Positions 2,371 to 27,102 of a stretch of DNA of 27,102 nt are shown one piece after another. Within the stretch, counting starts at the first letter, position 1. Every line of letters starts with the position of its first letter. Location of the stretch: positions 1 through 27,102 of the forward strand of contig JACPRC010000012.1 of assembly GCA_016190175.1 (NCBI GenBank), written 5' to 3'. A program made the translations under genes and the position numbers. This DNA comes from Planctomycetota bacterium (GTDB lineage: Bacteria; Planctomycetota; MHYJ01; JACPRB01). The notes beneath the pieces are model-generated. The model was given only the letters and a program-made list of their open reading frames with translations. It did no database searches and was not told the origin of the DNA.

Positions 2371-3639
2371 ATGAAACTCGCATGCGTCGGCGCCGGCGCC
2401 TGCTTCGCCAACGTCGTCGAGGACGTCCTGGCGAAGTGCCGCAAGAACAAGGACTCCGATTTCAAGTGGAAGGTGCTCTACGAGGCCCTCCAGCGCCCGG
2501 GACCGGGGCCGCAGTTCGAGGTCCACTACGTCGACTGCGGGCCCGAGCTCGCCCGCGCGAAGCAGAAGGGGGAAGTCTTCACCTACGACATCTCCAAGGG
2601 CGGCCTCCTCTCGGGCGCGGGCCACGTCGGCACGGGCGAGAAGTTCTTTCACGACGCCCAGTGGAGCGTCGTGCGGGACCTCCAGACGAACCTGAGCAAG
2701 AACCCGCCCGGCCTCTTCCTCTCGATCCGCGGCGGCGGCGCCACCAACTGCGGCGCGGGCTTCCAGCTCGACCGCGAGATCCTCGGGAAGTACGAGAACT
2801 CCGTCCTCCTCCAGTTCATCATCCTCCCCTACCGCGGCGAGGGGATCGAGGCGAGCCGCGTGGTGTACCTCGCCTGGCAGGTGCTGGAGCTCCTGCGCGA
2901 GTACCCCGACCGCTACGCTCCCGTCGTCATCTCGAACGAACAGATCCTGGCCGGCGCGCAGAGCTTCGAGAAGGCGGGGATGAACTGGTTCTACCCGCTC
3001 GCCAACACGATCGTCGCCGACGTGCTCGCGCGCATCCTCTATCCCACGCTCTATGCCGGCTCGGGCGAGAGCGGCGCGGTGGAGCAGGGCGCGTTCGAGC
3101 TGGACTCGCGGCAGAAGTACCTCGACATCCGCGACTTCGTCCGCCAGCCGGGCTTCCGCAGCGTCGGCTACGCCCACCTCGACGACACGGTGCCGCTCGA
3201 CCCGAAGGCGCTCGGGAAGCTCGTGAAGGACTCGCTCGGGGCTCTCCAGGTCGGGAAGATCCCGGACTCCGAGGAGCTGGGGCTGACGGGGAACCTCTCG
3301 CCGATGACGAACCCGCTCACGGCGTTCGCGCTCCTGACGGGTCCGCGCGGGGCGGTCGGCGACATCACGAAGGCGAAGCTCTCGGGCCTCCTCGAGGACG
3401 AGCTGCCCGGGTCGTTCCCCCGCGCGTACGCGTACGACATCACGCCGGGGAAGTACGAGTTCCTCCTTTTCCCGGGTGGCGGCGTCCCCGACGACATCCG
3501 CGCGTGGTGCGAGCGGTTCGGGAAGAACCTGCGCAACCCGCGGTACAAGGACGTCGTGAGCCAGGCGACGCACGACTTCGCGCGCGTCTGCGAGTACCAC
3601 GAGAAGCTCTGCGCGCAGTTCCAGATCAAGCCGGCATGA
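2371..3639 (+). CDS. Tubulin/FtsZ-superfamily GTPase (divergent tubulin-like protein), 422 aa.
   Basis: N-terminal glycine-rich T1-like loop CVGAGACFAN (tubulin: AGQCGNQ). T3-like LLSGAGHVGTGEKFF (tubulin: GQSGAGNNWAKGHY). T4-like signature RGGGATNCGAGF followed by DREILGKY (tubulin: GGGTGSG...SKIREEY). T7-like VISNEQIL (tubulin: IDNEALY; contains the catalytic Glu). Confidence 0.6.
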   Translation: MKLACVGAGACFANVVEDVLAKCRKNKDSDFKWKVLYEALQRPGPGPQFEVHYVDCGPELARAKQKGEVFTYDISKGGLLSGAGHVGTGEKFFHDAQWSVVRDLQTNLSKNPPGLFLSIRGGGATNCGAGFQLDREILGKYENSVLLQFIILPYRGEGIEASRVVYLAWQVLELLREYPDRYAPVVISNEQILAGAQSFEKAGMNWFYPLANTIVADVLARILYPTLYAGSGESGAVEQGAFELDSRQKYLDIRDFVRQPGFRSVGYAHLDDTVPLDPKALGKLVKDSLGALQVGKIPDSEELGLTGNLSPMTNPLTAFALLTGPRGAVGDITKAKLSGLLEDELPGSFPRAYAYDITPGKYEFLLFPGGGVPDDIRAWCERFGKNLRNPRYKDVVSQATHDFARVCEYHEKLCAQFQIKPA

Positions 3640-5220: not shown

Positions 5221-5278
5221 GGCGGCCTTATACTCGCCCGACTCGGCGGCCGCTAGGCTTTTCTTCGGCCCCCTAAGC

Positions 5279-5311
5279 CACACCAAAAGTTGACAGGGAG
5301 CTTTTGGTGTG
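5279..5311 (+). repeat. Solo REP-like palindromic element: CACACCAAAAG-TTGACAGGGAG-CTTTTGGTGTG (11-bp stem, 11-nt loop).
   Basis: Perfect inverted-repeat arms read directly. Near-identical copy at 12097-12133 and a degenerate inverted copy at 11183-11215, both flanking the RAYT gene. Confidence 0.6.
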
Positions 5312-5361
5312 CAAGTCGCGAGGGTTATCTTCGGCTCCCCAATTCTGCTATAACCGCGCTC

Positions 5362-8300: not shown

Positions 8301-11145
8301 ACCGCTGGCGGTCGTGCTCCTCGCGTCGATCGGCACCCGCGCGGAGACCTCCTCAGCCTGGAGCCGCGCGCTTGCGGACGCCCTGCTGGGCGGCACGGCG
8401 CCGTCCGCCTCCGATCCCGATCCCGTCGTGCGCGCGATGTGCGCCCTCGTCTTCGGGATGCGCGACGACCCCGGGCCGCTGATGACGCTCCTGGACGATC
8501 CGGATCCGCGGGTCGTCGAGGCGGCGCTCCTGGCGCTCCTGAGGGAGGATCCCGCGGATCCTCTGGAAACGGTGCCGTGCCCCTCCACGTGGGCCTATTT
8601 CCTGCTGGCGGCGAAGGCGGAGAAGAAACCGCCCGCGATCGCCCGGCTGCCCGCGTCGGAGCATGGCCGCATCGAAGCGGCCCTCCGCACGATCGCCGGG
8701 AAGACGCGGGCCGCGACGTCCCATCGGCTGGTGCTGGGACTCATGACGCGGGTGCCCATCGGCGTCGATCTCCTCCGCGGCGTGCTCCTGCGTTCTTTTC
8801 CCTCGTCGGGCGCGATCCGCGAGGGATTCGACCGCCAGGCTGCGCTCCAGCCGCGGGCGGAACTGGAGTCGCTTCTTCGGGAACTCGTGCAGACGGCGCC
8901 CCGCGAAGTCCGCCCGCGCTATTTCGAGGTCGCCTCGCAGAAGTCCCTCCTGACTGCGGACGATCTTCTCGGACAGATGGAATCCGACCTTCCCAAGATC
9001 CGGCTGGCGACACGCGACCTTCTCGTCCCGCTCCCCGACGCGCGCGCTGCGGCGCTCCTGGACCACGAGGATCTGCACGTCCGGCGGAACGCGGCTTGCC
9101 TCTTCGTTCTGTGGCACCTCGCCAGGACGCCGGGGTTCGGCTCCCTCTTCGCGCCGGCCACCTCGCCCCGTCGCTGCCAGACGCTGGCGTGGGCGCTGGC
9201 CCGGTTCGCCCTCGCCCCTTTCCACAAGAGGCGCGAGACGCCGGCGCTTTGGGGGGGGGAGATGATCAACGTGGAGATGATCAACTGGGAGGAGTTCGCA
9301 CCGTTCCGGGTCTCGGGAAAACTGCGCGTCAAGTCGCCCGAGGATGCGATCAAGCTGCTGCGCCTTGCGGTCGACCTCGATCCGTCCGACTCGAGCCTCC
9401 GGTACCACCTGGGATCGATGCTGGCGAGTCGAAGGTCCCACGCGGAGGCGATTGAGGCCCTTCTTGCGGCGGTCGAGAAACTCCCGCCGGAGTACGAGCA
9501 GATGCGCGCCGAGGCGTGCGAGAAGCTGGGGGAGGAGTATCTTGCGTCGAAGGACCCGGAGAACGCCATTCTCTGGCTTGAGCGATCGATGGCCTCCTTG
9601 CCCGAGCGGCCGGGTCCGCTCGCAAGGCTCGGAGAGGCGCTGATCCTCCGGGGGGAGTACGCGACCGCGGAGGCGAAGCTGACTCGTGCCCTCGACCTCG
9701 ACCCGCGGTCTGGAGAGGCGTACCTCATGCGAGGGCGCGCGCGGAAGAAACTGGGTCGTCTCGACGAGGCCGCCGTGGACTTGAGCAACGCGCTCGCCTA
9801 CGGAGGGAAGCCGACGGAGGAGGACAAGTCGGGGCTCGACTTCGACCGCGCGCTGCTGCCCTCGCTTCTGGAACGGATGCGCTGGGCGCGGACCGATGAC
9901 GAGCGCCTGAAGCTCGTCGGACACCTCAGACCGCTGATCGAGGGGGTCCCGTCTTCGGTCCGGGAGTGGCTCTCCTCAAGCAACTCCCTCCACCGCCGGA
10001 ACGCCGTCGCCGTGATCGCCGCAGTCTCGGACAGCCGCCGGGAGGAAGCGGACTGGGACGCGCTGGCCGCTGCGGCCGGCGATCCCGATCGGAGGGTGCG
10101 CCTGGCCGCCCTGTCGGCCTTGCGGGATGCGGAGGCGCGGCCGAGCGAGAGGGGAAGGTCGGACCTGCTGGCGGCCGCGCGGTCCGCCTTCCGTTCCGGG
10201 GATGAGGGACTTCGGGACGCGGCCCTGCCCGTCCTGGCCGCATGTCCGCTCGCGGAGGTCTGGGGCGAGCTTCTGGACTACATCGACCTGCCGCTACCCG
10301 TGATGGGCAGGGCGACGCAGCTCGCGAACCGCATGCGGGCTCTCGCCAGGTTCCTCAAGGAGGCGAAGCGGCTGCCCGCCGGGGCGGCGGAGCGGCTCCG
10401 TGCTTCGGCGGCGGTCGAAACGTGGGTCGTCCGTTTCGCGGCCGGCGAGCGCGGGGCGCGCTTCGTCGAGTCGCTCGTCGCGGCGCTGGTCGACGCCGAC
10501 CCGGCTCGGCGCGAGTACGCCGACGTCCTCGGCGCCGAATGGGACCCCGGGTTCGAGCAGGTTGCGGAAACTTGGATGGACCGTTCCGACCCCCACGCGG
10601 GCATCTACCTTGCCGGGTACGCGCCGGAGTTGTGGAAGAGGGCGGTCGATCGCCTGGCCGAGCTGGCCGTCCTGATCGACCATGCAATCGAGGCTCTCTT
10701 CCACCGTCGCGTCAGCGAGGGGGAGTCCTGTTGGCGCGGGCTTTCGGAGCCGCTGCTCGCGGTTCTGTGCCGTCTCCTGCCGGCGCGGACGGAGGCCGCA
10801 TGCGAGGTGGTCCGTCACTACGCGGCGCGGGCCGCGGGGCCGTCGCTTCGGACGATCGTGGGCGACGGGCGGGCGGCCGTCCGCGACCGGCTGGACGCGG
10901 CCGCGACGCTCGCCGAGATCGGCGAGGACGGGGGCGCGGAGTTCGTGGTCGAGGCGCTCCGGGGCCGGCTGGCGGGTGCAAGGGAGTACGCCGACCTCAA
11001 GCACGCGATCTGGCTCATCTGCCTCCGCGCGGCGGGGAAATCGGGGCGCAAGGAGTTCGTCCCCGTCCTGCGGGAATGCGCGGAGAAGTTCGAGGACAAT
11101 CACCTTCGCAAAGAGGCCGCCGCTGCGCTCCGCCAGTTGCAGTAG
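5362..11145 (+). CDS. Giant membrane Ser/Thr protein kinase, 1928 aa: N-terminal Hanks-type kinase, one TM helix, then about 1600 aa of HEAT/TPR repeats.
   Basis: Kinase motifs GRGGMGVVYEG, VAVK, HRDIKPANLML, DFGLA, GTPAYMSPE. TM segment LPAAVVLLSALVVAGVFAL. HEAT-like DPDPVVRAM..DDPDPRVVEAALLAL. TPR-like segment around 9300-9800. Start placed at ATG 5362 (MADAPAP...), downstream of the REP element. Confidence 0.8.
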   Translation: MADAPAPAPLRRIGDIELLREVGRGGMGVVYEGRQEKRRVAVKVLLGDDSDPEAVVRFQREASAASILQHPNIVPVTQFGRHEGVYYYVMPFVDGESLAARVRRQGALDPREAARFALQAALALDHAHRFGIVHRDIKPANLMLGERLMVTDFGLAKALAAPTLTAAGTVVGTPAYMSPEQAAGLKVGSRTDIYSLGATLYEMATGRVPFQERDVALLLRRIEETDPPLPSTIRAVPRDLETILLRAMQKDASLRYPTAAEMAEDLGRFLAGQSIRARRTGSVRKLARWVGRSRALPAAVVLLSALVVAGVFALRSKREVAKVRTEGREKEDAARRAQAERAFAAAEVLFGEKKWDEARKLYEEVVALGTPLAFEAKAALAELALAAGRLDDARRWIETLGRPPLLAAKLALREGEWRRAIELAKSVPDEPDAWDVLIEAHTALKDLDAARAALKEKVERQRARAQLLLREADAVVESEPGRAERLYRRALALCDAVGMEAPAAAGRCGRLLFARGLGREALPYLDRDPAQSYWSVRVRVDLGLWHDAHARFRPRDLDRESAETGLQIGLAMLDPTLVRACLPHVADPRLRSLATGESEDPVLRALVSSRAGDWERALPHATDPTVRGTLLFRLERTVEAAREFEKSRDPLGRIACAYELRGARAARELAEGAPGGDAVRVARVLLLLLEDRTKEALEVLMALFEEQPPIPAVALLVFRLQDVILRMPKEPLDRLTRKFENIFLRRFLSGDRREFERILWPQLNLGFRMLVPMMRDLAPYRMWQADQDWYVGNSPSETSILALLEDAAGGAPQIRELAEQRLRALDPAAILVLEQIAVRKGHPRAEAARRWAEVLAERRRQEQRMRLGSFVRLYSYHKVVTSLFGDELSLKDCLLKLTLFREAAGDLKAPEATAVLETYARDENLSVAITALQGLYAVDRAAFLRHLGSRAGLLAAALVDTVSLREPLESALKTAPEELRPLAVVLLASIGTRAETSSAWSRALADALLGGTAPSASDPDPVVRAMCALVFGMRDDPGPLMTLLDDPDPRVVEAALLALLREDPADPLETVPCPSTWAYFLLAAKAEKKPPAIARLPASEHGRIEAALRTIAGKTRAATSHRLVLGLMTRVPIGVDLLRGVLLRSFPSSGAIREGFDRQAALQPRAELESLLRELVQTAPREVRPRYFEVASQKSLLTADDLLGQMESDLPKIRLATRDLLVPLPDARAAALLDHEDLHVRRNAACLFVLWHLARTPGFGSLFAPATSPRRCQTLAWALARFALAPFHKRRETPALWGGEMINVEMINWEEFAPFRVSGKLRVKSPEDAIKLLRLAVDLDPSDSSLRYHLGSMLASRRSHAEAIEALLAAVEKLPPEYEQMRAEACEKLGEEYLASKDPENAILWLERSMASLPERPGPLARLGEALILRGEYATAEAKLTRALDLDPRSGEAYLMRGRARKKLGRLDEAAVDLSNALAYGGKPTEEDKSGLDFDRALLPSLLERMRWARTDDERLKLVGHLRPLIEGVPSSVREWLSSSNSLHRRNAVAVIAAVSDSRREEADWDALAAAAGDPDRRVRLAALSALRDAEARPSERGRSDLLAAARSAFRSGDEGLRDAALPVLAACPLAEVWGELLDYIDLPLPVMGRATQLANRMRALARFLKEAKRLPAGAAERLRASAAVETWVVRFAAGERGARFVESLVAALVDADPARREYADVLGAEWDPGFEQVAETWMDRSDPHAGIYLAGYAPELWKRAVDRLAELAVLIDHAIEALFHRRVSEGESCWRGLSEPLLAVLCRLLPARTEAACEVVRHYAARAAGPSLRTIVGDGRAAVRDRLDAAATLAEIGEDGGAEFVVEALRGRLAGAREYADLKHAIWLICLRAAGKSGRKEFVPVLRECAEKFEDNHLRKEAAAALRQLQ
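9251..9288 (+). repeat. G9 homopolymer (9251-9259) followed by a 15-bp tandem duplication (GAGATGATCAAC-GTG / GAGATGATCAAC-TGG), inside the kinase CDS.
   Basis: Direct reading. Encodes WGGEMINVEMINW. Confidence 0.5.
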
Positions 11146-11255: not shown

Positions 11256-12095
11256 ATGGGGATGCCGACTGCGATGCGTAGAGAGAAACGAGGCGAAGGA
11301 GCGTGGCACGTGTACGCCCGAGGGGCGCGTCGACTTGGCTTGTTCTACGAAGACGACCATTACCGCCGCTTCTTGTGCCTCCTTGAGAAGGGGGTTGCTA
11401 CCTCCGGCTGTTCTCTTTGGGCCTACGCCCTCATGTCCAATCACTACCATTTGATCGTTTTCGGGACCCCCGCTCAACTTGCAGGCTGCATGCAAGCAGT
11501 CAATCATGGGTTCGCCGTGTTCTTCAATGAACATCACGGGGTTGCCGGGCACACGTTCGATGGACCCTACCACGCTCATTTCCAGAGAACACCCTACCTG
11601 CTGGTCCGGCGCGTGGCCTATGTGTTCCTGAACCCCGTGGCGGCTGGGATCACGCTGCGGGCAGAAGACTATGCCTGGTCCAGCTATCGGGACTTTGTCG
11701 GTCTTCCTGGAGCGCCCCTGCATGTCGATCCGGACCCCGTTCTGAGGCTCCTCCACCATGATCCTCAGGAGGCTCGCAAGGAATTCGCCGGGATGATGTG
11801 TCGGCTGACGCCTGGGCGCGTCGAGTCTTCCGAAGGGGTGGCAACGGCGGCCGCGGTGGCTCGAGAGCAATTTGAGTGGCTGCTCGATGCGGCACGCGCA
11901 AGGCAGCGTACCGATGACGGTGAGGACTCGGAAGAGCGAGCGTTGCGCTGGGGACTCCAGTGCGGCATACCCCCACGGATCATGGCCGGCGTCCTTGGAA
12001 ACGGAACTCCGGCCCCGGTCTATTGGAGACTCCGACAGTTGCGAAAGAAGCTGGAAGCAGATCCGGAACGCTACCGTCGATTGCCTCCCCCGTGA
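11256..12095 (+). CDS. IS200/IS605-family Y1 (HUH) transposase-like protein of the REP-associated RAYT type.
   Basis: N-terminal AWHVYARG (compare HVMNRG). HUH motif NHYHLIV. Catalytic-Tyr region YAWSSY. Somewhat lower GC than the neighbouring genes. Flanked by REP hairpins. Confidence 0.7.
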   Translation: MGMPTAMRREKRGEGAWHVYARGARRLGLFYEDDHYRRFLCLLEKGVATSGCSLWAYALMSNHYHLIVFGTPAQLAGCMQAVNHGFAVFFNEHHGVAGHTFDGPYHAHFQRTPYLLVRRVAYVFLNPVAAGITLRAEDYAWSSYRDFVGLPGAPLHVDPDPVLRLLHHDPQEARKEFAGMMCRLTPGRVESSEGVATAAAVAREQFEWLLDAARARQRTDDGEDSEERALRWGLQCGIPPRIMAGVLGNGTPAPVYWRLRQLRKKLEADPERYRRLPPP

Positions 12096-18425: not shown

Positions 18426-20636
18426 CTACTGCCCGAACATCTCGCGGAGCCGCGGTCCCGCGTCCGGGTCCTCCAGGAGGGGCTGGAGGTACGAGTCCTT
18501 CATGGCGAACACCTTCGCCAGGACGAAGAAGGCGGGCGCGCGGTGGATGTACTTGAACCGAACCGGCGGTCCCGTCCCCTTCGTGAACAGGCCGTACTCG
18601 CCGGCGGCGGTCGCGTGCTTGATCGCGTTCTGGATGGAAGCCAGGACCGGGCGGCCCTGCTTCGCCGTCGCGCAGGCAAGATGGTACTCGGCGGGGTAGT
18701 AGTTCGTGAGCTGCGAGAACTTGCGTCCCGCCTGCTCCAGCCGGTTCTGGAGGAGATCGAGGACTCCCTGGAGATAGGTCCTCAGGTTGCTCCCAGGGAT
18801 GATCTGGACGATCGGCTCCGCCTCCCGGAACCGGCCCTGCTCGATGTGGCAGAGGGCGCGCAGGCACAGAACGGCCTCGTGCCCGCCCTTGGGGAGACGG
18901 GAGGCGGCATCGAGGATATTCTCGGCATCCTGCAGCCGGCCGTAGGTGAGGTGGGTCAGGGCGGCGATCGCCCCCATGACCGGGGTGGGGAAGTCCTCGA
19001 GGAGCTGCGGCATCTGGGACGCGTGATCGCCGTTCTTCCTGGCGTTGTAGGAGGCGATGGCCAGGAGGAGGCGGAACTCCGGAGCGGGGCCTTTGCCGCG
19101 CCGTTCCTCCTGCGGCGCCGCGACCTCGGTGTCCTTCTCGTCGAGGAGCTTGTTCACGGCGCCGGTGAAGGGCAGGTTGGAGAACTTGTCGAGCGCTTCG
19201 TGGACGGCGACGAACCGCGGGTCCTTGAGGAGACTCCGGAAGTCGATGCGATAGGGGCGGTCGACGAGCCGGAACGGTCCCGAGTTGGTCATGATGATGC
19301 CCAACTGGATCGCGCGGACCTCCCCTTCGGGTGCGCCCCGCCGCACCGCGTCCTCGAGGAGGCCGAGCGCCTCCTGATCGCGGCCCAGGAGGATCTCGGC
19401 GCGCGCGGCGACGTTGTGGCCCCAGATGTCCTTGGGGTTGCTCTCGATCGCGCGGCGCGCGAGGTCGCGGAGCCGGGCGACCTCCGCATCGCGCACGTTG
19501 AGCTCGCCGTTCAGCAAGGCGCGCCCGCCGCGCCTCCAGGGGTACGGTTCGAAGTTGCGGGGGGGCAGGTCTCCGTCGGCGGCCGGTTTCGGGATCGCGG
19601 GGAGCGGAAGGCCGACCCGGGCGGCCGGCAGACCGGGATCCGGCCTCACGGCAATGGCGATCGCGGCGCCGACCAGGACCAGCCCGGTTGCCGCCGCCGC
19701 GGGCATCCAGGTCCGGCGGACGATCCGCAGCACGGCCGACGGCGCGCGCGCGGAGACGTCCCCCCCGCCGAGCCACGAGCGAAGCTCCTTCGCCAGCGCG
19801 CCCGCGGAGGGATAGCGGTCCTCCTTCCGCTTCGCCATCGCCTTGAAGACGATCGCGGCGAGCTCCTTTGGAACCTCCTTGAGGGGCGGAGCGTCGAGGG
19901 CAAGGATCTGCTGCATCACGCCGAACGGGGTCGAGGCGCGGAACGGCAGCCGTCCCGAGAGCATCTCGTACATCAGGACGCCCAGGCTGTAGACGTCCGA
20001 CCGGGCGTCCACGTCGGCGGGCGACCCGTCCGCCTGCTCGGGCGACATGTAGTAGGGCGTCCCGATGACCGCGCCCGTGCGCGTCACGCGCTCGTCCTTG
20101 CCTATCGTGCGGGAGAGGCCGAAATCGACGAGCACCGGCCGCCCCTCCCCCGTGATGAGGATGTTGGACGGCTTGACGTCGCGATGGACGACGCCCTGGC
20201 GATGAGCGTGTTCGAGGGCCTCGGCGATCAGGACGAAACACTGCACCTTGCGGCGCGTCGGCGCGGCGGCGATGCTCGACAGCGGTTTGCCGCCGACGAG
20301 GTCCATCACCAGGAACGGCCGCCCATCGACGTCGCCGATCTCGTGGATCCGGACGATGCCCGGATGGGGCGCGCGCGACGGGGCGCGCGCCTCGCGGAGG
20401 AGCCGCTCGTAGTCCGTCTTGGAGAGCGAGGGCGGGAGGATCTTGAGGGCGACGTCGCGGTCGAGCGTGGGGTCGTGCGCCTTCCAGACCACGCCGACGC
20501 CGCCGCGGCCCAGCTCCTCGAGGAGGCGGAAGCGCCCGAACGAGGCCTGCTGCGGCACGGGCGCGGCCGGCTCCTCCTTCTCGAAGACGTTGCGGCACAG
20601 CCGGTCGAACACGGACTCGCGGGGCTTATCCGCCAT
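18426..20636 (-). CDS. Membrane Ser/Thr protein kinase: N-terminal Hanks kinase, a TM helix, and a C-terminal TPR-like helical domain.
   Basis: Motifs GRGGVGVVWKA, VALK, HRDVKPSNILI, DFGLS, GTPYYMSPE. TM segment LVLVGAAIAIAV. Its start overlaps the upstream sigma-factor stop by 11 nt. Confidence 0.85.
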   Translation of the reverse strand: MADKPRESVFDRLCRNVFEKEEPAAPVPQQASFGRFRLLEELGRGGVGVVWKAHDPTLDRDVALKILPPSLSKTDYERLLREARAPSRAPHPGIVRIHEIGDVDGRPFLVMDLVGGKPLSSIAAAPTRRKVQCFVLIAEALEHAHRQGVVHRDVKPSNILITGEGRPVLVDFGLSRTIGKDERVTRTGAVIGTPYYMSPEQADGSPADVDARSDVYSLGVLMYEMLSGRLPFRASTPFGVMQQILALDAPPLKEVPKELAAIVFKAMAKRKEDRYPSAGALAKELRSWLGGGDVSARAPSAVLRIVRRTWMPAAAATGLVLVGAAIAIAVRPDPGLPAARVGLPLPAIPKPAADGDLPPRNFEPYPWRRGGRALLNGELNVRDAEVARLRDLARRAIESNPKDIWGHNVAARAEILLGRDQEALGLLEDAVRRGAPEGEVRAIQLGIIMTNSGPFRLVDRPYRIDFRSLLKDPRFVAVHEALDKFSNLPFTGAVNKLLDEKDTEVAAPQEERRGKGPAPEFRLLLAIASYNARKNGDHASQMPQLLEDFPTPVMGAIAALTHLTYGRLQDAENILDAASRLPKGGHEAVLCLRALCHIEQGRFREAEPIVQIIPGSNLRTYLQGVLDLLQNRLEQAGRKFSQLTNYYPAEYHLACATAKQGRPVLASIQNAIKHATAAGEYGLFTKGTGPPVRFKYIHRAPAFFVLAKVFAMKDSYLQPLLEDPDAGPRLREMFGQ

Positions 20637-21375
20637 CCTTCTCCCCGCTGCCGAACAGGTACTGCATCTCGGCGTCGAGGTCCGACGGGTCGGTGACGGA
20701 CTGGAGCACGCGGTCGCGGAGGAAGCTGCGCAGGTCCGCGCGCACGCGGCGCAGCGCCCCGCGGACGGCGTCCTCGGTCACGCCGGACCGGTGCGAGAGG
20801 TCCGCGTACGAGGGCGGCGCCGGCGCGAGGTCGTACGCCTCGAAGATCTTGAAGACGTTCTCGCGTCCCGACTGCCGGTACTGGGTCCGCAGCGCCGCGA
20901 TCGCGTCCTGCATCAGCGCCTGCGCCCAGACGCGGTCGAAGGCGCGCTCGACGGACTCCGTCTTCGCCGGGAGCTGGAACAGGGGTTCCTCCGCCGCATC
21001 GATCGAGACGGGCCTCGACCCGCCGCCCCGCTTGATCCTCCCCTCGTCGCGTTTCTGGTTGAGCATGAAGTGCTCCAGCGCCGCGCGGACGAAGGAGCGG
21101 AAGCGCCCGCGGTCGGGCGAGACGGACTTGAGGAAGTCCTTCTCGAGGAACGTGGCGAAGAACTCCTGCGTGAGGTCCTTCGCGTCCTCGTTCCCGCGGT
21201 TCCACCGCAGGCGCACGAGCCAGTACACGGGCTTCCAGTAGTAGCGGCAGAGCTTCTCCAGGTTGGCCTGGGATTCCTTGTCACTCGCGTCGCGGGCGCC
21301 GAGGATGACGGTCCACAGGGTGGGCGGGAAGGCGCCGCCGGGGCCGCCGAGCTGGGTGACGGGGTCGACGTTCAT
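20626..21375 (-). CDS. ECF-type sigma-70 family sigma factor (the STK-associated type) with a C-terminal extension.
   Basis: Region-2-like LEKLCRYYWKPVYWLVRLRWNRGNEDAKDLTQEFF. Region-4 HTH-like SYADLSHRSGVTEDAVRGALRRVRADL. The ATG at 21375 overlaps the upstream stop (ATGA). Confidence 0.7.
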   Translation of the reverse strand: MNVDPVTQLGGPGGAFPPTLWTVILGARDASDKESQANLEKLCRYYWKPVYWLVRLRWNRGNEDAKDLTQEFFATFLEKDFLKSVSPDRGRFRSFVRAALEHFMLNQKRDEGRIKRGGGSRPVSIDAAEEPLFQLPAKTESVERAFDRVWAQALMQDAIAALRTQYRQSGRENVFKIFEAYDLAPAPPSYADLSHRSGVTEDAVRGALRRVRADLRSFLRDRVLQSVTDPSDLDAEMQYLFGSGEKDGG

Positions 21376-21998
21376 AGGTATCGCAGCAGCGCGCCGATCT
21401 CCTCGGGCATCTCCTCCGCGGTGCAGTACTCGCCGACGAGGCGCTCGATCTCCGCCTTCAGTTTCAACTTCGCGCGATGGACATGGTTGGTTACATCGCC
21501 CTCGCTGCGCCCGAGCGCGGCGGCGATCTCCTTGTAGGACTTCCCCCCGATCTGGAGCTCGAGGGCCGCGAAGTGGGGGTCGGGGCGCAGCCGTTCCATC
21601 GCGCGCCCGACGAGGTTCCGCACCCACAGCCGGTCGAACTCGGCGTCCGGGGGCGCCTCCGCGGGGAGATCGAAGTCGCCGAGCGCGACCTCGCGGCGCC
21701 GGTCGCGCGCGCCCGCGAGCGCGTGCCGGCGGTGCGAGGCGATCACGTGCCGCGTGACGGCGAGGAGGAGGTTGCGGAACCTCCCCTTGCTGCGGTCGGC
21801 CTTCCCCAGGAACTCCTCGCGGCAGACGCGGAGGAACACCTCCTGGGCGACGTCCTCGGCATCCTCGGGAGGGATCCCCTGCGCGCGCGCGAAGTCGACG
21901 ACGGGCTGCCGGTATCGGCGCACGACGAGGTCCTTGACGCGCTCGGGGTCGCTGCGGACCTGGAGGAGGCACGTCCACATCGTGGAGGGAAGCGGCAC
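21372..21998 (-). CDS. ECF-type sigma factor with a C-terminal extension. Start is the GTG at 21998 or the ATG at 21980.
   Basis: Region-2-like DFARAQGIPPEDAEDVAQEVFLRV. Region-4 SYKEIAAALGRSEGDVTNHVHRAKLKLK. TATACT lies 6 nt upstream of the GTG at 21998, so the transcript may be leaderless. Confidence 0.7.
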   Translation of the reverse strand: MPLPSTMWTCLLQVRSDPERVKDLVVRRYRQPVVDFARAQGIPPEDAEDVAQEVFLRVCREEFLGKADRSKGRFRNLLLAVTRHVIASHRRHALAGARDRRREVALGDFDLPAEAPPDAEFDRLWVRNLVGRAMERLRPDPHFAALELQIGGKSYKEIAAALGRSEGDVTNHVHRAKLKLKAEIERLVGEYCTAEEMPEEIGALLRYL

Positions 21999-22248
21999 GG
22001 CAATAGTATAACTCGCCCGCGGCGGGGGGCGTAGCGAGGAAATGGGGCCGTGGCGGGGAGCGCGGCGAACGGGCGCCTACTCGATCCGCGTCGCGCCCAG
22101 CACGTCGCGCGCCCGGACGATCATTCGCAGGACGCGGGCGAGGTCGGGGTCCTCGATTCTCTCGACCGGCCCGTAGAGCGTCTCCGCGCGCGCAAGCGCC
22201 GCCGAGATCAGGTGTTGGAGGATTTTCTACGCGCCCGCTTCGTTTCGA

Positions 22249-22277
22249 TTGACCCCCGCCGAACCCCGCGATAGATT
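22249..22277 (+). promoter_or_regulatory. Candidate sigma70-like promoter TTGACC-N17-TAGATT upstream of the MVP-like gene.
   Basis: Direct reading. The -10 ends about 28 nt before the ATG at 22306. GGAGG lies 8 nt upstream of that ATG. Confidence 0.3.
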
Positions 22278-22305
22278 GCCTCCCGCCCATATGGGAGGAA
22301 GAGAC

Positions 22306-24471
22306 ATGCCACAGGAGCGCGAGCTGCGGGAACGCGACATCCTCGTCGCGTCGAACGAGTACGCCTACGTCCAGGATCTCACGAAGGGCGACATCGTCCT
22401 CTACGTGGGGCCGACGAAGATCAGCCTCTCCAACACGGAACGGCTCGTCGAGTTCCGCAACGGCCGCTTCGTCCCCGTGCGCGGCGAAGAGGGCGGGCTC
22501 GGCGTCAACCCGTTCGTCGTCGCGTCGTCGGCGCAGTACATCATCCTCGAGAACCCGCCGAAGGACCCGAACGTCCGGACGGTGAAGGGCAACAACTCGG
22601 CGATCGAGCTCCTCATCGGCAAGAAGTTCGTCGTCTCCGGCCCCGCCACGTTCCCGCTCTGGCCCGGCCAGAAGGCGCAGGTGATCGACGGCCACGAGTT
22701 GCGCGAGGACCAGTACCTCGTGATCCGCGTGTACGACCGGGTCGAGGGAGAGAACGATCCCATCGGGACGCAGCGGATCGTGAAGGGCTCCGAGGTCAGC
22801 TTCTACATTCCGAAGACCGGGCTCGAGGTCGTGCCCGACGAGAAGGGCTACGTGCGCAGCGCGGTGACGCTCCTTGAGGGCGAGTACTGCATCCTCCTGG
22901 CGCCGAACGGCCAGACGCGGTTCGTGCGCGGGCCCGCGGTGGTCTTCCCGGGCCCGATGGAGGAGTTCGTCCGCAAAGGCGGGACGAAGATCTTCAAGGC
23001 CGTGCCGCAGCGGAAGAACATGGGACTCCGCGTGCGCGTGCTGAAGGACTTCACGGCCGCGGACTCGCAGCAGGTGCCCGCGGGGAAGTACACCGCGGGG
23101 CAGGAGATCTTCCTCAAGGACCGCGAGGGCTTCTTCTTCCCGAGCGAGTCGCTCGAGGTGACGGCGGAGGTGCAGGCGATCCCGATCGCGGAGAAGGAGG
23201 GGATCTACGTCCGCAACCTCGAGACGGGCAAGGTCGCGACCGAGATCGGGCCGAAGAACACCCTCGCCGATCCCACGAAGACGGAGATCGTCTCGCGCGC
23301 GCTCGACCCGGAGATCGAGAAGCTCTACGGCGTCACGGGTCGGGACAAGGGCAAGGCGGTCTCGATCTACATCCCGCCGAGCTACGCCGTGATGGTGACG
23401 GGGAAGAACAAGCGCGAGGTCGTGATCGGCCCCGCGACGCGCATCCTCGACTTCGACGAGGACCTGGAGATCCTCAAGCTCTCGACCGGGAAGCCGAAGA
23501 CGGACGAGACGCTCCTCTCGACCTGCTTCCTCCAGATCACGGGGAACAAGGTTTCCGACATCGTGCGCGTCAAGACCGCGGACCACGTGGAGCTGGAGGT
23601 GACGGCCTCCTACCGCGTGACGTTCGTCGCGCAGGACGCGCGCGAGCGCGAGAAGTGGTTCAACGTGAAGAACTACGTCGGGCTCCTGTGCGACCACCTC
23701 GGTTCGATCGTGCGCGCGGCGGTGCAGGCGACGCCGATCGAATCGTTCCACACGCGCAGCGCCGAGGTCGTGCGCGCGGCGATCCTCGGCGAGAAGAAGG
23801 GCGAGGAGAAGCGCGTCGGGCGCCACTTCGCCGAGAACGCGATGTCGGTCTACGACGTCGAGGTGCTCGACGTGAAGATCCTGGACCAGGACGTCAAGAA
23901 GCTCCTCTCGGACGCGCAGCGCAGCGCGATCGTCTCGGAGGTGCAGAAGAAGCAGGAGAACCTCCGCCTGAGCAACGAGTCGGTCAAGCAGGAAGTGGAC
24001 CGCAGGATCTACGAGGCGCAGATGACCACGATCGCGAAGGCGATCGATCTCGAAGGGGTCAAGCGGAACCTGTCGGAGGCGCGCGTCCGAGAGGCGGTCG
24101 AGCTGGACAAGCTGGAGAAGGTGGGGAAGGCGCAGAACCAGGCGCAGGCGCTCGACGTGTCGAGCACGGCGGCCGCCGCGGCCGCGGAGCGCGAGGCGCA
24201 AGTGGAGATCAAGAGCCTGAGCGCGAAGGTGGGGGCGTTCAAGGAGCAGATGTCGGCGCTGCAGCCGGAGCTCGTCACGACGCTCAAGGTGCTCGGCGAC
24301 CAGGAGATGAGCAAGGAGCTGACGCGGAACCTCTCGCCGCTGGCGATCCTGGGCGGGCAGAGCGTGGCGGAGGTGGCGGAGCGGCTCCTGAAGGCGCTTC
24401 CCGTCGGGATCGTGCTCAAGAACGGCGCGGCGGAGCCGGTGACGAAGGCGAGGAAGAAGACGGCGGAGTAA
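22306..24471 (+). CDS. Major vault protein (MVP) homolog, 721 aa: vault repeat domains, a shoulder-like region and a C-terminal coiled-coil cap-helix.
   Basis: Aligned against remembered human MVP. RIPPYHYIHVLD versus [21 protein letters not shown] versus [21 protein letters not shown] versus [34 protein letters not shown] versus [38 protein letters not shown] versus [18 protein letters not shown]. The last roughly 180 aa are predicted coiled coil. Confidence 0.8.
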   Translation: [721 protein letters not shown]

Positions 24472-24513
24472 ACAAGAGGGACGGTCCACAGGTCGACGCT
24501 GAAGGTCAAGCTG

Positions 24514-24927
24514 TTGACCGACCCCGCACTTGAAGTATGGCGGACCTCGATCGGCCAAAACAGGCTCGTCTATCTGCTCTTGGCCGACAAGAGGCTCAAA
24601 TACCTGCACGGGCGATCGCATGTCGCGTACATCGGCACGACCAAGAAAGGGGTCGCTCGCATAGCTGCCAGCGCGGCGTACAGGGCAGAGGAGATCCTCG
24701 GGATGCACGGCGTCAGGCGATGCACCGCGCGGGTTGTAACCGTCAAGCGTCGGCAGAACGTCAAAACCTGGGTGAAACTCGAAAGTGCCCTTCTGTTGGT
24801 TTTTCGCCGGGAGTACGGCCATGTGCCGATTTGCAATACTGCCGGCAAGAGAAGGCGGGAGACTGACGAGTTGAGGTTCTTTGATCGCGATCGTCTCGTC
24901 GGAATCTTGAAGGACCTCGTGGAATGA
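24514..24927 (+). CDS. Hypothetical protein (TTG start), possibly a GIY-YIG-like nuclease fold. Lower GC (about 57%).
   Basis: RLVYLLL ... AYIGTTKKGVARIA resembles GIY...YIGxT..R. A later Glu and Asn are present. The TTG start and atypical motif spacing keep confidence low. Confidence 0.3.
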   Translation: MTDPALEVWRTSIGQNRLVYLLLADKRLKYLHGRSHVAYIGTTKKGVARIAASAAYRAEEILGMHGVRRCTARVVTVKRRQNVKTWVKLESALLLVFRREYGHVPICNTAGKRRRETDELRFFDRDRLVGILKDLVE

Positions 24928-25013: not shown

Positions 25014-25421
25014 TCAAGCGAACGGATTGAGGGTCTTCACGCGGGCCTTCTTGAAGTCGCGCACGTTCCGCGTGACTACGGTGAGGCCATGCGTCGCCGC
25101 AGTGGCGGCGATCAGACTGTCCTTGATCGGCATGGACCGGCCGGAAGCCCGAAGGTCCGCGAGGAGTTTCGCCCAGCAAAGACCCGTGCCCGCGTCCCAC
25201 GGGAGGCAGGCGAATCGGGCTACGCCGTCCTGGAACCAGCGTTCCAGCGCGCGACGGCGCCTGCCGGCGGGCAGCAGAAGGATGCCGAACCGGATCTCGC
25301 CCAGGATGATGGGGTCGACGACGATCTCGCGTTCGTTCCGCCGCAGCCACTCCACGACACGAGCATCGGGTGCGGGCTTGGTGGCCTCGCTGAGGACGTT
25401 CGCATCGACGAGGTACGTCAC
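25014..25421 (-). CDS. vapC: PIN-domain toxin VapC (GTG start overlapping the vapB stop: GTGA).
   Basis: TYLVDANVLSE (PIN N-terminal Asp). Conserved acidic residues further on (EIVVDPIILGE, DSLIAATA). About 135 aa. Position and 4-nt overlap with the antitoxin gene fit a vapBC pair. Confidence 0.7.
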   Translation of the reverse strand: MTYLVDANVLSEATKPAPDARVVEWLRRNEREIVVDPIILGEIRFGILLLPAGRRRRALERWFQDGVARFACLPWDAGTGLCWAKLLADLRASGRSMPIKDSLIAATAATHGLTVVTRNVRDFKKARVKTLNPFA

Positions 25422-25648
25422 AGCGAATCCGTCGATTCCGATTCGACGGGGACGAAGAAGTTCCTCTCGGGGCAGGCCAACAGCCAGTCCACCAGCCCTT
25501 GGTTCGGCCTGGGCTTGCGTCGGACCAGGCGGTATTCGCCTCGGGCGAGGCGTTCGATCGCGAACTCCTGACCGGGCACGATGCCGTCCCGCTTTCGGAG
25601 CCCGGCAGGAAGCACGATCTGGCCCTTCGTGGAAACCGTCGTCGTCAT
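25418..25648 (-). CDS. vapB: AbrB/SpoVT-type antitoxin VapB.
   Basis: MTTTVSTKGQIVLPAGLRKRDGI is a swapped-hairpin (SpoVT/AbrB) motif. 76 aa. Lies directly upstream of the PIN gene. Confidence 0.7.
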   Translation of the reverse strand: MTTTVSTKGQIVLPAGLRKRDGIVPGQEFAIERLARGEYRLVRRKPRPNQGLVDWLLACPERNFFVPVESESTDSL

Positions 25649-25670: not shown

Positions 25671-25867
25671 CTCCTCGCGGTCAACGAGCGCGCGCCGGGC
25701 CGGCGATCGATCCCGCAGGCGCGTTCTCGCCCCGGCGGCCTCGCCCCACCGCGCCTGAACGAGATGTCCAGGGGACACTCCGTCGTCTCCGTCGCCGCCG
25801 GTGAGTCGGCGGTCGCGTTGCGGCGGATCGTCCGACGATCGCTGAAGGATCACGGGTCGAGGATTCA

Positions 25868-26290
25868 ATGCGTGGCCAAGCCACGCCATGGTATAGTGGC
25901 GGCAAGGGGATCATCGCCAAGAGAGTGTCCCTGTTCGGGAGCCGGGGGAAGAAGACCGTCTTCGCGCTCTTCGACAGCGGCGCCTCGAAGTCGCTCATCC
26001 GAAGAGATCTCGCGCGAGATCTGGGCCCGCTCGTCGAGCTTCCCGAGCCCGAGCGGTTCGAGATGGTGCGGGGGAGATTCATCGTCCGCGACGGGTGCGT
26101 AGCAAGCGTGGGGCTCGGGCGCGCCAAGCCGGCTCATCTCTTCCGCGCCGTCGAGAGACTGAGCGAAGATCTCATCGTAGGGGCCGACTTCCTCCAGCAG
26201 TGGGACGTGCGGCTGGAGCCGCGGCGCAAGAAGATCGTCCTGGATCCGCGTGCGTTGCGGCTCAAGGCCGTCGGTCACCGCCCGCAGTAA
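25868..26290 (+). CDS. Retropepsin-like (clan AA) aspartic protease domain protein.
   Basis: ALFDSGAS (D-S/T-G-A active site). GADFL near the C-terminus. At about 140 aa it has the size of bacterial retropepsin-like proteins. Confidence 0.55.
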   Translation: MRGQATPWYSGGKGIIAKRVSLFGSRGKKTVFALFDSGASKSLIRRDLARDLGPLVELPEPERFEMVRGRFIVRDGCVASVGLGRAKPAHLFRAVERLSEDLIVGADFLQQWDVRLEPRRKKIVLDPRALRLKAVGHRPQ

Positions 26291-26497: not shown

Positions 26498-26532
26498 GTT
26501 AGGCAGCGGAGTCATGTAAGGAACATCGACCC

Positions 26533-27102
26533 ATGGCTCCGACCAGCCTCCGCGGCTACGTGGTGCAGGAAGAAGTGAAGGAAGGGTCGATCGGGACCGT
26601 CTATCGCGTCACCGACTCCCGGAACCGCACGCTCGCCCTCAAGCAGATATCGGCCGGGAACGCCGTTCAGCCGCGAAAGCGCAGGGAGTTCCGCAAGGAG
26701 TACGAGATCCAGAAGCGCCTCGACCATCCTGCGATCGTCAAGGTGTTCGACTACGTGGAGATGGCCCCGCAGGATTTCTTCACGATGGAGTACTTCGAGA
26801 GCGAGAGCCTCAAGGTCACGATGTTCCACCTCCCGGAGCGCATCCGCAAGCGCGAGTTCCGGCTCCTGCGCCGGCTCGCGGAGGCGCTCGAACACGTCCA
26901 CTCGAAGGGGATCATCCACAAGGACATCAAGCCCGAGAACGTCCTCGTCGACGCCAAGGGCGACATCCGTCTGATCGACTTCTCCCTCGGCCAGACGAGG
27001 TGGGACCGGTGGCTCCAGTTCGGAAAACGCGTCGAGGGGACGCCGCTCTACATGGCGCCCGAGCAGATCCGCGGCGGGCGCTGCGACGAGCGCACCGACA
27101 TC
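26533..27102 (+). CDS. Ser/Thr protein kinase, 3'-truncated by the window end.
   Basis: GSIGTVYRV, ALKQI, HKDIKPENVLV, DFSLG, GTPLYMAPE. The reading frame is open to the last base. Confidence 0.8.
   Translation, partial: MAPTSLRGYVVQEEVKEGSIGTVYRVTDSRNRTLALKQISAGNAVQPRKRREFRKEYEIQKRLDHPAIVKVFDYVEMAPQDFFTMEYFESESLKVTMFHLPERIRKREFRLLRRLAEALEHVHSKGIIHKDIKPENVLVDAKGDIRLIDFSLGQTRWDRWLQFGKRVEGTPLYMAPEQIRGGRCDERTDI

Follow-up and report, generated by a model that had tools for sequence, protein, structure and literature searches.

A seven-repeat bacterial member of the major vault protein family from Planctomycetota and its possible assembly into a vault-like shell

The gene and its control signals

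The window analysed here was a stretch of 27,102 nucleotides from a Planctomycetota bacterium (contig JACPRC010000012.1). It carried a gene for a 721-aa homologue of MVP (major vault protein), whose features are listed in Table 1. The product was identical to a 'hypothetical protein' (P0001) of a Planctomycetes bacterium MAG at NCBI, and an NCBIfam search of the homologue returned no meaningful family. The reading frame was open from 22249 to 24471 on the plus strand, and the initial annotation had taken 22249 as the start. This position is a TTG coinciding with the −35 hexamer of the promoter-like site. Translation really begins with the ATG at 22306. A Shine-Dalgarno-like site precedes it, and the homologues begin at the same position with a 14-residue consensus. 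As proposed earlier, a sigma70-like promoter-like site and a Shine-Dalgarno sequence were both present. The promoter-like site occurred once in 21900-24700, compared with 0.2 expected in shuffles. The GC3 of the gene was 0.95, similar to that of the neighbouring genes.

Table 1. Features of the MVP homologue gene, with positions in the window and the basis of each assignment.
Feature	Position	Strand	Basis
Sigma-70-like promoter-like site, TTGACC-17 nt-TAGATT	22249..22277	+	consensus match only
Shine-Dalgarno-like GGGAGGA	22293..22299	+	6 nt 5' of ATG; read from sequence
CDS of the 721-aa MVP homologue	22306..24471	+	stop codon 24469-24471
Repeat b1 (aa 8-60), putative R1-type N-terminal 'waist' domain	22327..22485	+	colinear hhalign
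Repeat b2 (aa 61-122), R2 / Vault_2 type, holds FPLWPGQ	22486..22671	+	hhalign vs R2, P 5.7e-6
Repeat b3 (aa 123-184), single repeat in place of R3-R5	22672..22857	+	full-length hhalign: opposite R5
Repeat b4 (aa 185-231), R6 / Vault_2 type	22858..22998	+	hhalign vs R6, P 1.6e-5
Repeat b5 (aa 232-281), R7 position	22999..23148	+	colinear alignments
Repeat b6 (aa 282-357), R8 / Vault_4 type, inserted helix	23149..23376	+	hhalign vs R8, P 2.5e-14
Repeat b7 (aa 358-412), R9 / Vault_3 type, 'keyhole' loop STGKPKTD	23377..23541	+	hhalign vs R9, P 2.9e-9
SPFH-type shoulder (aa 413-527)	23542..23886	+	MVP_shoulder; pLDDT ~85-93
Cap-helix equivalent (aa 528-682), ~155-residue helix	23887..24351	+	AF2; aligns with MVP cap helix
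C-terminal tail (aa 683-721), possible cap-ring remnant	24352..24468	+	pLDDT <55

The gene was divergent from an ECF-sigma gene at 21375-21998 (Sigma70_r2 and r4_2), beyond which lay a second sigma-like ORF and then a Ser/Thr kinase. The divergence from an ECF-sigma/ECF-sigma/kinase set, as described initially, was thus seen, with the second sigma-like ORF being weak. Directly downstream lay a toxin-antitoxin pair of PIN/MazE-like type together with a retropepsin-like gene.

Homology and domain architecture

The 721-aa protein is a true bacterial member of the MVP family. The homology had been proposed in the initial annotation, and Pfam, phmmer, the family profile, hhalign, and Foldseek all agreed on it. 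Pfam MVP_shoulder (PF11978) matched aa 414-527 with 109.5 bits (E 1.3e-31, cut-off 25) and spanned model positions 3-118 of 118, and Vault_3 matched with 37.7 bits (E 2.3e-9, cut-off 28.8), while Vault_4 was under threshold (E 6e-4). The Pfam check suggested with the annotation was therefore borne out for MVP_shoulder and Vault_3, but Vault (PF01505) gave no match to the homologue at E<=1. The same model scored 211 bits on Xenopus MVP, in 4 stretches (R3, R4, R5, and R7). Furthermore, phmmer against the human, rabbit, and rat MVP chains in the PDB gave E 1e-32, and the family profile against the PDB MVP chains gave E 3e-54. The hhalign comparison with 15 animal MVPs reached a probability of 100% (E 4e-41) over aa 123-660, with 27% identity across 516 columns. 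In the Foldseek search of the AF2 model, vault structures took all of the first 12 places (E 1.7e-37 to 2.6e-32), and the murine R1-R7 crystal structure was matched at E 2e-14.

Four motifs had been quoted as shared with MVP, and three of them aligned as claimed: the 20-residue R8 motif and the 18-residue shoulder motif, each opposite an MVP stretch of equal length in phmmer, and the R2 motif FPLWPGQ opposite MVP FPLYPGE (E 2e-4). The fourth, of 10 residues, resembled a 10-residue stretch of R6, but its repeat was placed opposite R5 by the colinear alignment.

The second tier of Foldseek matches consisted of prohibitin, flotillin, HflK/C, and stomatin (E 4e-7 to 1e-4), and it covered the shoulder and helix only. 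The shoulder has the SPFH fold, and some sources label relatives of the protein as 'regulator of protease activity HflC', so that a generic SPFH/band-7 membrane scaffold misread as MVP might be considered. SPFH cages (HflK/C, flotillin, prohibitin, stomatin, erlin) have in common with the MVP homologue an SPFH domain and a long helix, which in the cages bundles into a dome. However, the cages are membrane-anchored and have no vault repeats, whereas the homologue is predicted to be soluble and its shoulder follows a run of repeats about 410 residues long, with Vault_3 above the Pfam cut-off. Moreover, Foldseek gave 1e-37 for MVP structures versus 1e-7 for SPFH proteins, there was no membrane segment (maximum 19-residue Kyte-Doolittle hydropathy 1.25), and no NfeD or FtsH partner gene was present among the window ORFs scanned. 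This reading is extremely improbable. A generic band-7 identity, which the initial annotation had named as one way in which its claim might fail, was ruled out by Pfam, the family profile, Foldseek, and hhalign.

The AF2 model comprised seven beta modules, followed by the shoulder and a helix of 124+29 residues (528-651 and 654-682); a further helix was located at 335-341 in b6. The result was in agreement with the coiled coil of cap-helix length described earlier. The pLDDT was low at aa 90-102 (b2) and ranged from 39 to 79 over the N-terminal third. With hhalign, aa 123-660 aligned with MVP 210-797, and the best register for aa 8-126 was MVP 3-106 (E 2e-4, with a probability of only 46%). 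About 100 residues, equal to two of R3-R5, are thus absent, and seven repeats were counted here compared with nine (R1-R9) in rat and human MVP. In phmmer, the query from aa 185 on aligned with human MVP from residue 272.

The repeats were also compared one by one. For b1 alone, R8 was the best match (P 2.6e-5), followed by R1 (P 0.017). The profile of the N-terminal 130 aa found no MVP among the PDB sequences, giving chance-level matches only, so the R1-R2 assignment is that of hhalign. For b3 alone, the order was R6 (3.6e-4), R9, and R3, which differs from the colinear placement at R5 and makes its type ambiguous. In addition, b5 alone matched R3, R5, and R7, the 'Vault'-type repeats. The MVP waist-loop motif NER[VL] aligned with TERL, which was invariant in the clade of close relatives.

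Compared with eukaryotic MVP (rat, human, and Xenopus; PDB 4V60, 9BW5, and others), the order of the parts was the same: a putative R1-type domain came first, then the repeats and the SPFH shoulder, and last a cap helix of some 155 residues, equal in length to that of rat MVP. Clear alignment was obtained for R8, R9, and the shoulder, which kept its conserved Cys and His positions. The differences were that seven repeats stand in place of nine, with one repeat replacing R3-R5, that the PF01505 match of the eukaryotic protein is absent here, and that the eukaryotic cap-ring was not demonstrably present in the tail, where hhalign gave a weak colinear similarity (E 0.011, probability 4%). The R3-R5 region is where PARP4 docks on eukaryotic MVP (PMC12280208).

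A further difference was found in the NAD+ pocket. The inter-subunit NAD+/ADP-ribose pocket of human MVP is formed by R504, K506, R507, P508, H509, R511, L517, D521, F522, W545, P565, and K573 (PMC12280208). The equivalents in the phmmer alignment were K396, K398, T399, D400, E401, L403, L409, N414, K415, V438, K455, and D463, respectively. Only 2 of the 12 were identical and 1 was conservative; the loop length and a G-x-P-K motif were retained, the loop being conserved as STGxPKTD. Judged by this alignment, the human pocket is not conserved in the bacterial homologue, its residues being mostly replaced.

Distribution and genomic neighbourhood

Prokaryotic homologues had been described as rare, and novelty had been implied; neither held. 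The close relatives formed 461 clusters (90% identity) in Myxococcota, Planctomycetota, and Acidobacteriota, with 59-89% identity to the MVP homologue, and the whole family at E<=1e-30 comprised 714 clusters (50% identity), huge phages and an archaeon included. With only two peptide patterns, 64 species-level genomes with relatives were found. Bacterial MVP homologues have been in print since 2013 (Daly 2013, PMC3762200; Sokolskyi 2019, bioRxiv 10.1101/872010), and there are also reports on phages (10.1101/2023.11.10.566534) and, from 2026, on Asgard archaea (PMC12962969).

Within the clade, the proteins were about 700-765 aa in size, and the mean column identity was 55%. The most conserved domain was b1, with a majority fraction of 0.88 and 18 of 53 columns invariant. 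In 57 homologues, the cap-helix segment measured 148-162 aa, with a median of 155. Animal MVPs were likewise strongly conserved. Such conservation across phyla fits a protein whose whole surface is an interface, and the conservation of the N-terminal domain is consistent with a protein-protein interface there.

The identity to animal MVPs was 24-26%, compared with 59-90% within the clade and 32-48% to other prokaryotic or viral representatives. The phyla were interleaved in the NJ tree. Its eukaryotic sequences were animal MVPs only, so it speaks to recent rather than deep transfer. MVP is best known from eukaryotes, and a transfer from eukaryote to bacterium was considered by Daly et al. 2013 (PMC3762200). 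Nevertheless, it can hardly be credited here that the gene was acquired recently from a eukaryote or is eukaryotic contamination. The low identity to animal MVPs, the large bacterial clade, the GC3 matching that of the contig, and the bacterial genes around it (ECF sigma, PIN toxin) refuted a recent transfer.

No neighbouring gene family was conserved, either over 64 loci by clustering or in comparison with the 89%-identical homologue (P0002). The initial annotation had drawn attention to eukaryote-like neighbours, a tubulin-like GTPase and Hanks kinases. Kinases did recur near the homologues, but approximately as expected for kinase-rich genomes (the expected rate being an estimate, not a computed value), and the 'tubulin-like' ORF was 19 kb away with no Pfam match. 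Since none of the adjoining genes is conserved, this 'eukaryote-like' company is a coincidence. The gene of the MVP homologue stands alone: it has a promoter-like site to itself and lacks a conserved partner. In this genome, the partner search covered the window and its flanks. The eukaryotic vault particle also contains vault RNA, TEP1, and PARP4. In the window, no Rfam family reached threshold, vault RNA included, and no TROVE or PARP domain was present among the ORFs scanned; there was no conserved partner beside the homologues.

The MVP homologues of phages (bioRxiv 10.1101/2023.11.10.566534; LR756500, LR756501, and LR756503) belong to the same family, with 30-37% identity over most of the length, but they are of about 800-900 aa, form another clade, and lie in phage genomes. 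One of them, in the 735-kb huge phage LR756501, had 37% identity, and another homologue was found on a 172-kb phage-like contig, adjoining NADAR. The gene could in principle be a mobile conflict gene, phage-derived or anti-phage, whose shell would sequester or scaffold something during infection. The phage copies, the interleaved phyla, the absence of synteny even at 89% identity, and the toxin-antitoxin pair and retropepsin-like gene just downstream are in line with this. So are eukaryotic vaults, with their binding of NAD+/ADP-ribose and their TIR-like NADase (10.64898/2026.05.01.722283). However, no clade member was found among the 2.9 million viral contigs of IMG/VR, and the closest phage homologues were merely 30-37% identical. 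In addition, PADLOC gave no defence-system match for the homologue or three neighbouring ORFs, no partner gene was conserved, and the NAD+ pocket was not retained. We therefore regard a conflict role as improbable.

Proposed assembly and comparison with known systems

The rat vault is a closed two-cup barrel of 39+39 chains. To our knowledge, the function of vaults has been unknown for 40 years. For the bacterial protein, the reading we prefer, with a probability of roughly 0.55, is that of a soluble, cytoplasmic MVP member that self-assembles, free of partners, into a shorter vault-like shell. The chains would pack laterally through the repeats and the shoulder, as in MVP and other SPFH-family proteins, and the cap helices would bundle to give a closed cup. 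Two cups would then meet through their conserved R1-type N-termini to form a hollow vault-like shell. With two repeats fewer in each half, it would fall short of the eukaryotic vault, which measures roughly 65-70 nm, and it would do without vault RNA, TEP1, and PARP4. Both ends that make assembly contacts in the vault appear to be retained, with the putative R1-type domain being the most conserved and the cap helix keeping its length of 148-162 aa. Moreover, MVP expressed alone forms vaults (10.64898/2026.05.01.722283), and closed cups have been modelled for Asgard homologues (PMC12962969). In the literature searched, no experiment reporting vault particles from bacteria was found.

The assembly may instead be a single cup that stays open, or a small ring, like a half-vault or an SPFH dome, the rim of which might dock on a membrane or another structure. 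The other SPFH assemblies among the second-tier Foldseek matches (HflK/C, flotillin, prohibitin, and stomatin) are all single domes, and modelling of the Asgard homologue gave a 10-mer closed cup only (PMC12962969). Some eukaryotic vaults, a subpopulation, are reported to be membrane-associated in situ (PMC13100048), and the R1 assignment of b1 is weak. However, the protein has no hydrophobic or membrane-anchoring segment, and its N-terminal domain, the most conserved one, aligned best with the R1-R2 waist of MVP. A single cup is thus rather unlikely, though worth keeping in mind.

The two-cup shell may be extended to a broader and more tentative proposal, for which the odds are somewhat below even. 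Planctomycetota, Myxococcota, and Acidobacteriota might all contain, in their cytoplasm, true vault-like nanocompartments with closed shells, built by this whole clade of partner-free, seven-repeat proteins. These would be the prokaryotic equivalent of the eukaryotic vault in minimal form, and perhaps its forerunner, with R3-R5 expanding later in the eukaryotic vault to give the PARP4 docking site. If true, bacteria would possess a class of protein shell that experiments have yet to reveal. A simple, partner-free bacterial version could offer a tractable way to study assembly, cargo, and function, and it would bear on the origin of the eukaryotic vault organelle.

MVP-like proteins were reported earlier from Corallococcus (H8MNI3), Plesiocystis, Saprospira, Microscilla, Herpetosiphon, and cyanobacteria, with an MVP-like fold, and perhaps docking, predicted in silico only (PMC3762200, bioRxiv 10.1101/872010). 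Judged by their description, these proteins probably share a Myxococcota-centred clade with the present homologue. The available text of the two reports does not mention Planctomycetes, whereas the present copy is from a Planctomycetes MAG, and what is available of the earlier bacterial reports gives no repeat count, neighbour conservation, or state of the NAD+ pocket. The locus itself adds little beyond the hundreds of bacterial homologues, some of which are in named species such as Corallococcus (PMC3762200). The additions made here are an architecture of seven repeats, the extreme conservation seen at the putative R1-type end, the lack of a conserved partner gene, and the loss of the human NAD+ pocket. 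Like the present protein, the Asgard archaeal MVP homologues have repeats, shoulder, and cap helix, and fewer repeats than those of eukaryotes; by description, they possess five repeats and a 10-mer cup model, compared with seven repeats here (PMC12962969).

Identity and domain structure of the window protein

The 721-aa window protein was matched to the major vault protein (MVP) at every level tested. Pfam MVP_shoulder gave an E-value of 1.3e-31 (109.5 bits, cut-off 25) and Vault_3 one of 2.3e-9 (37.7 bits, cut-off 28.8); Vault_4 fell slightly under its cut-off. Among the families named in the initial annotation, MVP_shoulder was thus recovered, and PF01505 (Vault) gave no match on the protein. 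A phmmer search of PDB sequences returned MVP chains only (E ~1e-32), the next match having E 0.2, and with a profile of 57 homologues the MVP match rose to 3e-54. Furthermore, profile-profile comparison with 15 animal MVPs aligned residues 123-660 with residues 210-797 of Xenopus MVP (probability 100%, E 4e-41). The AlphaFold2 model had a mean pLDDT of 75, with values above 85 across R8, R9 and the shoulder (R1-R9 and b1-b7 denote the repeats of eukaryotic MVP and of the window protein, respectively). In Foldseek, the top 12 matches of this model were vault structures (E 1.7e-37 to 2.6e-32), followed by the murine R1-R7 crystal structure (2e-14), and the SPFH cages (prohibitin, flotillin, HflK/C, stomatin) reached only ~1e-7, through the shoulder and helix alone. 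Because MVP was matched at each of these levels, a generic band-7 protein was excluded, and the homology first noticed was correct and statistically overwhelming.

The expected equivalent of the cap helix was present in the model as a very long helix. The cap-helix segment measured 148-162 aa in all 57 of 57 homologues (median 155), the same length as the rat cap helix, as supported by the animal-MVP profile alignment. The similarity of the tail to the eukaryotic cap-ring was not significant. No membrane segment was found in the protein (maximum 19-residue hydropathy 1.25), and the N-terminus, highly charged on inspection, does not suggest a signal peptide.

For repeat typing, the bacterial and animal families were both split into single repeats and compared by hhalign. 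The result assigned b2 to R2 (P 5.7e-6), b4 to R6 (1.6e-5), b6 to R8 (2.5e-14) and b7 to R9 (2.9e-9); b5 occupied the R7 position, and b3 was ambiguous in type. The best colinear register of the N-terminal 130-residue profile was MVP 3-106, namely R1-R2 (E 2e-4, probability only 46%; next registers 0.007), which pairs a stretch of the window protein with GPKTYIRQDNERVL of MVP, and FPLWPGQ with FPLYPGE. Set beside the Pfam order of Xenopus MVP (R1, Vault_2, three Vault, Vault_2, Vault, Vault_4, Vault_3), the typing indicates that a single bacterial repeat stands where eukaryotic MVP has three, R3-R5. The several vault repeats initially described thus amounted to seven beta modules, with R3-R5 represented once. 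In addition, b1 (aa 8-60) matched eukaryotic R8 (P 2.6e-5) better than R1 (0.017), the R8-type b6 also matched R1 (5e-4), and both had the common motif NE-x-x-YV-x-D-x-x-x-G; these cross-matches and the motif may point to a more recent common origin for R1 and R8 than for the other repeats.

Domains of the window protein (aa) and features around its gene (nt)
Feature	Position	Strand or location	Basis or remark
Seven beta modules	aa ~10-57, 66-116, 122-176, 186-230, 232-280, 283-356, 358-410		AlphaFold2 model
Alpha/beta shoulder	aa 414-527		AlphaFold2 model
Single very long helix	aa 528-651, extended by 654-682		AlphaFold2 model
C-terminal tail	after aa 682		AlphaFold2 model, poorly predicted
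Very large ORF	5257-11145	(+)	Stop-to-stop frame 1963 aa; N-terminal Ser/Thr kinase-like sequence, then long helical-repeat region
Ser/Thr kinase with TPR repeats	18429-20633	(-), upstream, divergent side	Pfam
Second ORF	20629-21291	Upstream, divergent side	Sub-threshold r2 match
ECF sigma	21375-21998	Upstream, divergent	Sigma70_r2 + r4_2
137-aa ORF	24514-24927	(+)	Starts 43 nt past MVP stop codon; GC3 0.74, lower
PIN-domain toxin, overlapping MazE/AbrB-like antitoxin, adjacent retropepsin-like aspartyl protease ORF	25017-25645 (-), 25865-26287 (+)	Just downstream of MVP gene	E 6.5e-13; E 3e-4, below threshold; E 2e-6
Further kinase-family ORF	26503-27102	(+), downstream	Sequence clustering

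The gene and its neighbourhood

In the ORF listing, the frame was 22249..24471 (+), 740 aa, starting at a TTG at 22249, and this extent had been given to the gene. The TTG doubles as the first base of the sole sigma-70-like match in the region (TTGACC-17-TAGATT, 22249-22277; 1 found against 0.2 expected). Inspection of the sequence found GGGAGGA at 22293-22299 ahead of an ATG at 22306, from which the 721-aa product initially described is obtained. This product was 100% identical to P0001, a 'hypothetical protein' of a Planctomycetes bacterium MAG at NCBI, and the homologue starts coincided with this ATG in the alignment. The CDS is therefore 22306-24471; the end first assigned was retained, and the start at 22249 belongs to the promoter-like site. 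Its GC3 was 0.95, like that of other genes in the window (window GC 64-74%).

A divergent operon of two ECF sigma factors and a Ser/Thr kinase had been proposed upstream, of which the first sigma and the kinase were recovered and the second sigma was a sub-threshold match. Downstream, no terminator-like site was found between the MVP gene and the 137-aa ORF, which had no Pfam or PADLOC match and no homologue in related loci, and may be spurious or strain-specific. The PIN/MazE-like pair and the retropepsin-like ORF were not conserved at other loci. All-against-all clustering of the ORFs of 64 homologue loci and the window gave one common family besides MVP, the kinases (22 ORFs in 19 loci), a recurrence which we estimate to be about chance level for kinase-rich genomes. 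No neighbour gene was conserved in this clustering, and the 89%-identical homologue was flanked by DoxX and an ABC transporter. Moreover, PADLOC had no match for MVP and three neighbouring ORFs, and Rfam had none in the window, so that no vault RNA was found there. Since no neighbour was conserved and neither database matched, the MVP gene behaves as a stand-alone unit, and the eukaryote-like neighbourhood is a coincidence.

The supposed tubulin-like GTPase, ORF 2473-3636 (+), contains GGGATNCGAG and lies 19 kb from the MVP gene. It had no Pfam match at E<=0.01, none of the 64 related loci contained a homologue, and its PDB match to FtsZ (aa 57-177) was at chance level (E 0.2), which did not bear out the assignment. 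The very large ORF, the TPR kinase and the further kinase-family ORF clustered as one kinase family, with a Pfam basis for the TPR kinase only. ORF 11256-12092 (+), of 279 aa, had no Pfam family at E<=0.01 and carries SNHYHLIV, which we take to be HUH-like and reminiscent of IS200/REP-associated tyrosine transposases.

Occurrence and origin

At E<=1e-5, the first search gave 461 clusters (90% identity), of which the best 120 were 59-89% identical to the window protein over nearly the full length. Where a source was named, it was Planctomycetes, Gemmataceae, Acidobacteriota/Blastocatellia or, in most cases, a member of Myxococcota such as Archangium. A pattern scan with one genome per species found the 64 loci, and 714 clusters (50% identity) passed E<=1e-30 when 1.84 billion representatives were searched exhaustively with an HMM; the window clade was essentially one of these, and most others were 800-900 aa. 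Daly et al. 2013 (PMC3762200) describe homologues of MVP from Corallococcus, Plesiocystis, Microscilla, Saprospira, Flexibacter, Herpetosiphon and cyanobacteria, and Sokolskyi 2019 (10.1101/872010) an in silico analysis of bacterial ones. Homologues in phages were reported in 2023 (bioRxiv 10.1101/2023.11.10.566534), and Asgard homologues with five repeats in 2026 (PMC12962969). Rarity and novelty, like the meaning of the neighbours, had thus been overstated in an interpretation whose homology holds. A search for the term in three papers on bacterial and phage MVPs found no mention of Planctomycetes, and the window protein is a Planctomycetota addition to a known MVP-like family.

The window clade was monophyletic in a neighbour-joining tree of 72 sequences, where it grouped with a few metagenomic sequences of 745-946 aa, far from animal MVPs. 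Identity to animal MVPs was 24-26%, and that to other representatives 32-48%; within the clade it was 59-90%. Of the origins first considered, transfer from eukaryotes and ancient descent, recent eukaryote-to-bacterium transfer was excluded by this distance in tree and identity, as was contamination. In this tree, built without bootstrap, the Planctomycetota homologues (P0001-3, P0022, P0082) were scattered, Acidobacteriota nested beside the window's group, and the sequences of both phyla and of Myxococcota were interleaved at 60-68% identity. Synteny was absent even between copies 89% identical. The interleaving and the absent synteny are only suggestive of single-gene transfer between bacterial phyla.

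One homologue (L067) was placed on a bacterial chromosome. Huge 'uncultured phage' genomes (735 kb and 462 kb) also encode MVP homologues in unannotated records (L071, LR756501.1 17320-19605; LR756503.1; LR756500.1), which match the window protein with 37% identity across aa 6-676 and with 30% across aa 147-676. The 859-aa homologue P0253 (L065 8001-10580; also L066) lay on a 172-kb phage-like contig with co-directional phage-like genes (NADAR, HU, DksA/TraR zinc finger, ClpP, RlaP, RNA ligase, HSP20, PIF1-like helicase); NADAR, for ADP-ribose processing, is notable there because human vaults bind ADP-ribose. The 745-aa homologue P0243 (L070 8001-10238, = L051; CAYGYR010000001.1, 585 kb, Methanosarcinales) was 42-44% identical; its gene adjoins eIF-1A and diphthamide synthase, with an S49/NfeD-like peptidase gene 2 kb upstream, and L063 was a second such locus. 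Because eIF-1A and diphthamide synthase lie alongside, P0243 is truly archaeal and not mis-binned.

Proposed assembly and comparison with the eukaryotic vault

Whether bacteria build vaults is a real question that had been raised before and reaches beyond this locus, and the papers retrieved contained no experiment on a bacterial MVP homologue. The analyses established the fold, domain order and solubility of the window protein and, within the window and beside its homologues, the lack of partners. We infer that it would self-assemble, and on the arguments below favour, with a probability of about 0.55, a closed two-cup shell that would be shorter than its eukaryotic counterpart; the main rival, an open single cup, was considered rather unlikely. 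To our knowledge, every characterised SPFH-plus-helix protein makes a ring or dome. This favours self-assembly, as does the formation of vaults by MVP alone when expressed (10.64898/2026.05.01.722283). Both ends that make vault assembly contacts appear to be kept, and the majority fraction in the clade was highest in the putative R1-type end (0.88; shoulder 0.77, helix 0.63), which also argues for assembly. Self-assembly is further favoured by the fixed helix length and by the conservation of the whole protein, which was unusually high across phyla, as in animal MVPs, and fits a protein whose entire surface would be interface.

Repeats 3-4 of MVP are the docking site of the PARP4 MINT domain (PMC12280208). 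Since one repeat replaces R3-R5, this site is probably missing from the window protein. The NAD+/ADP-ribose pocket of human MVP was not conserved either: 2 of 12 mapped residues were identical and 1 conservative, with T, E and L in place of the basic R507, H509 and R511. A role for another ligand or as an interface is possible for the STGxPKTD loop, because it was nearly invariant across the alignment of the window clade.
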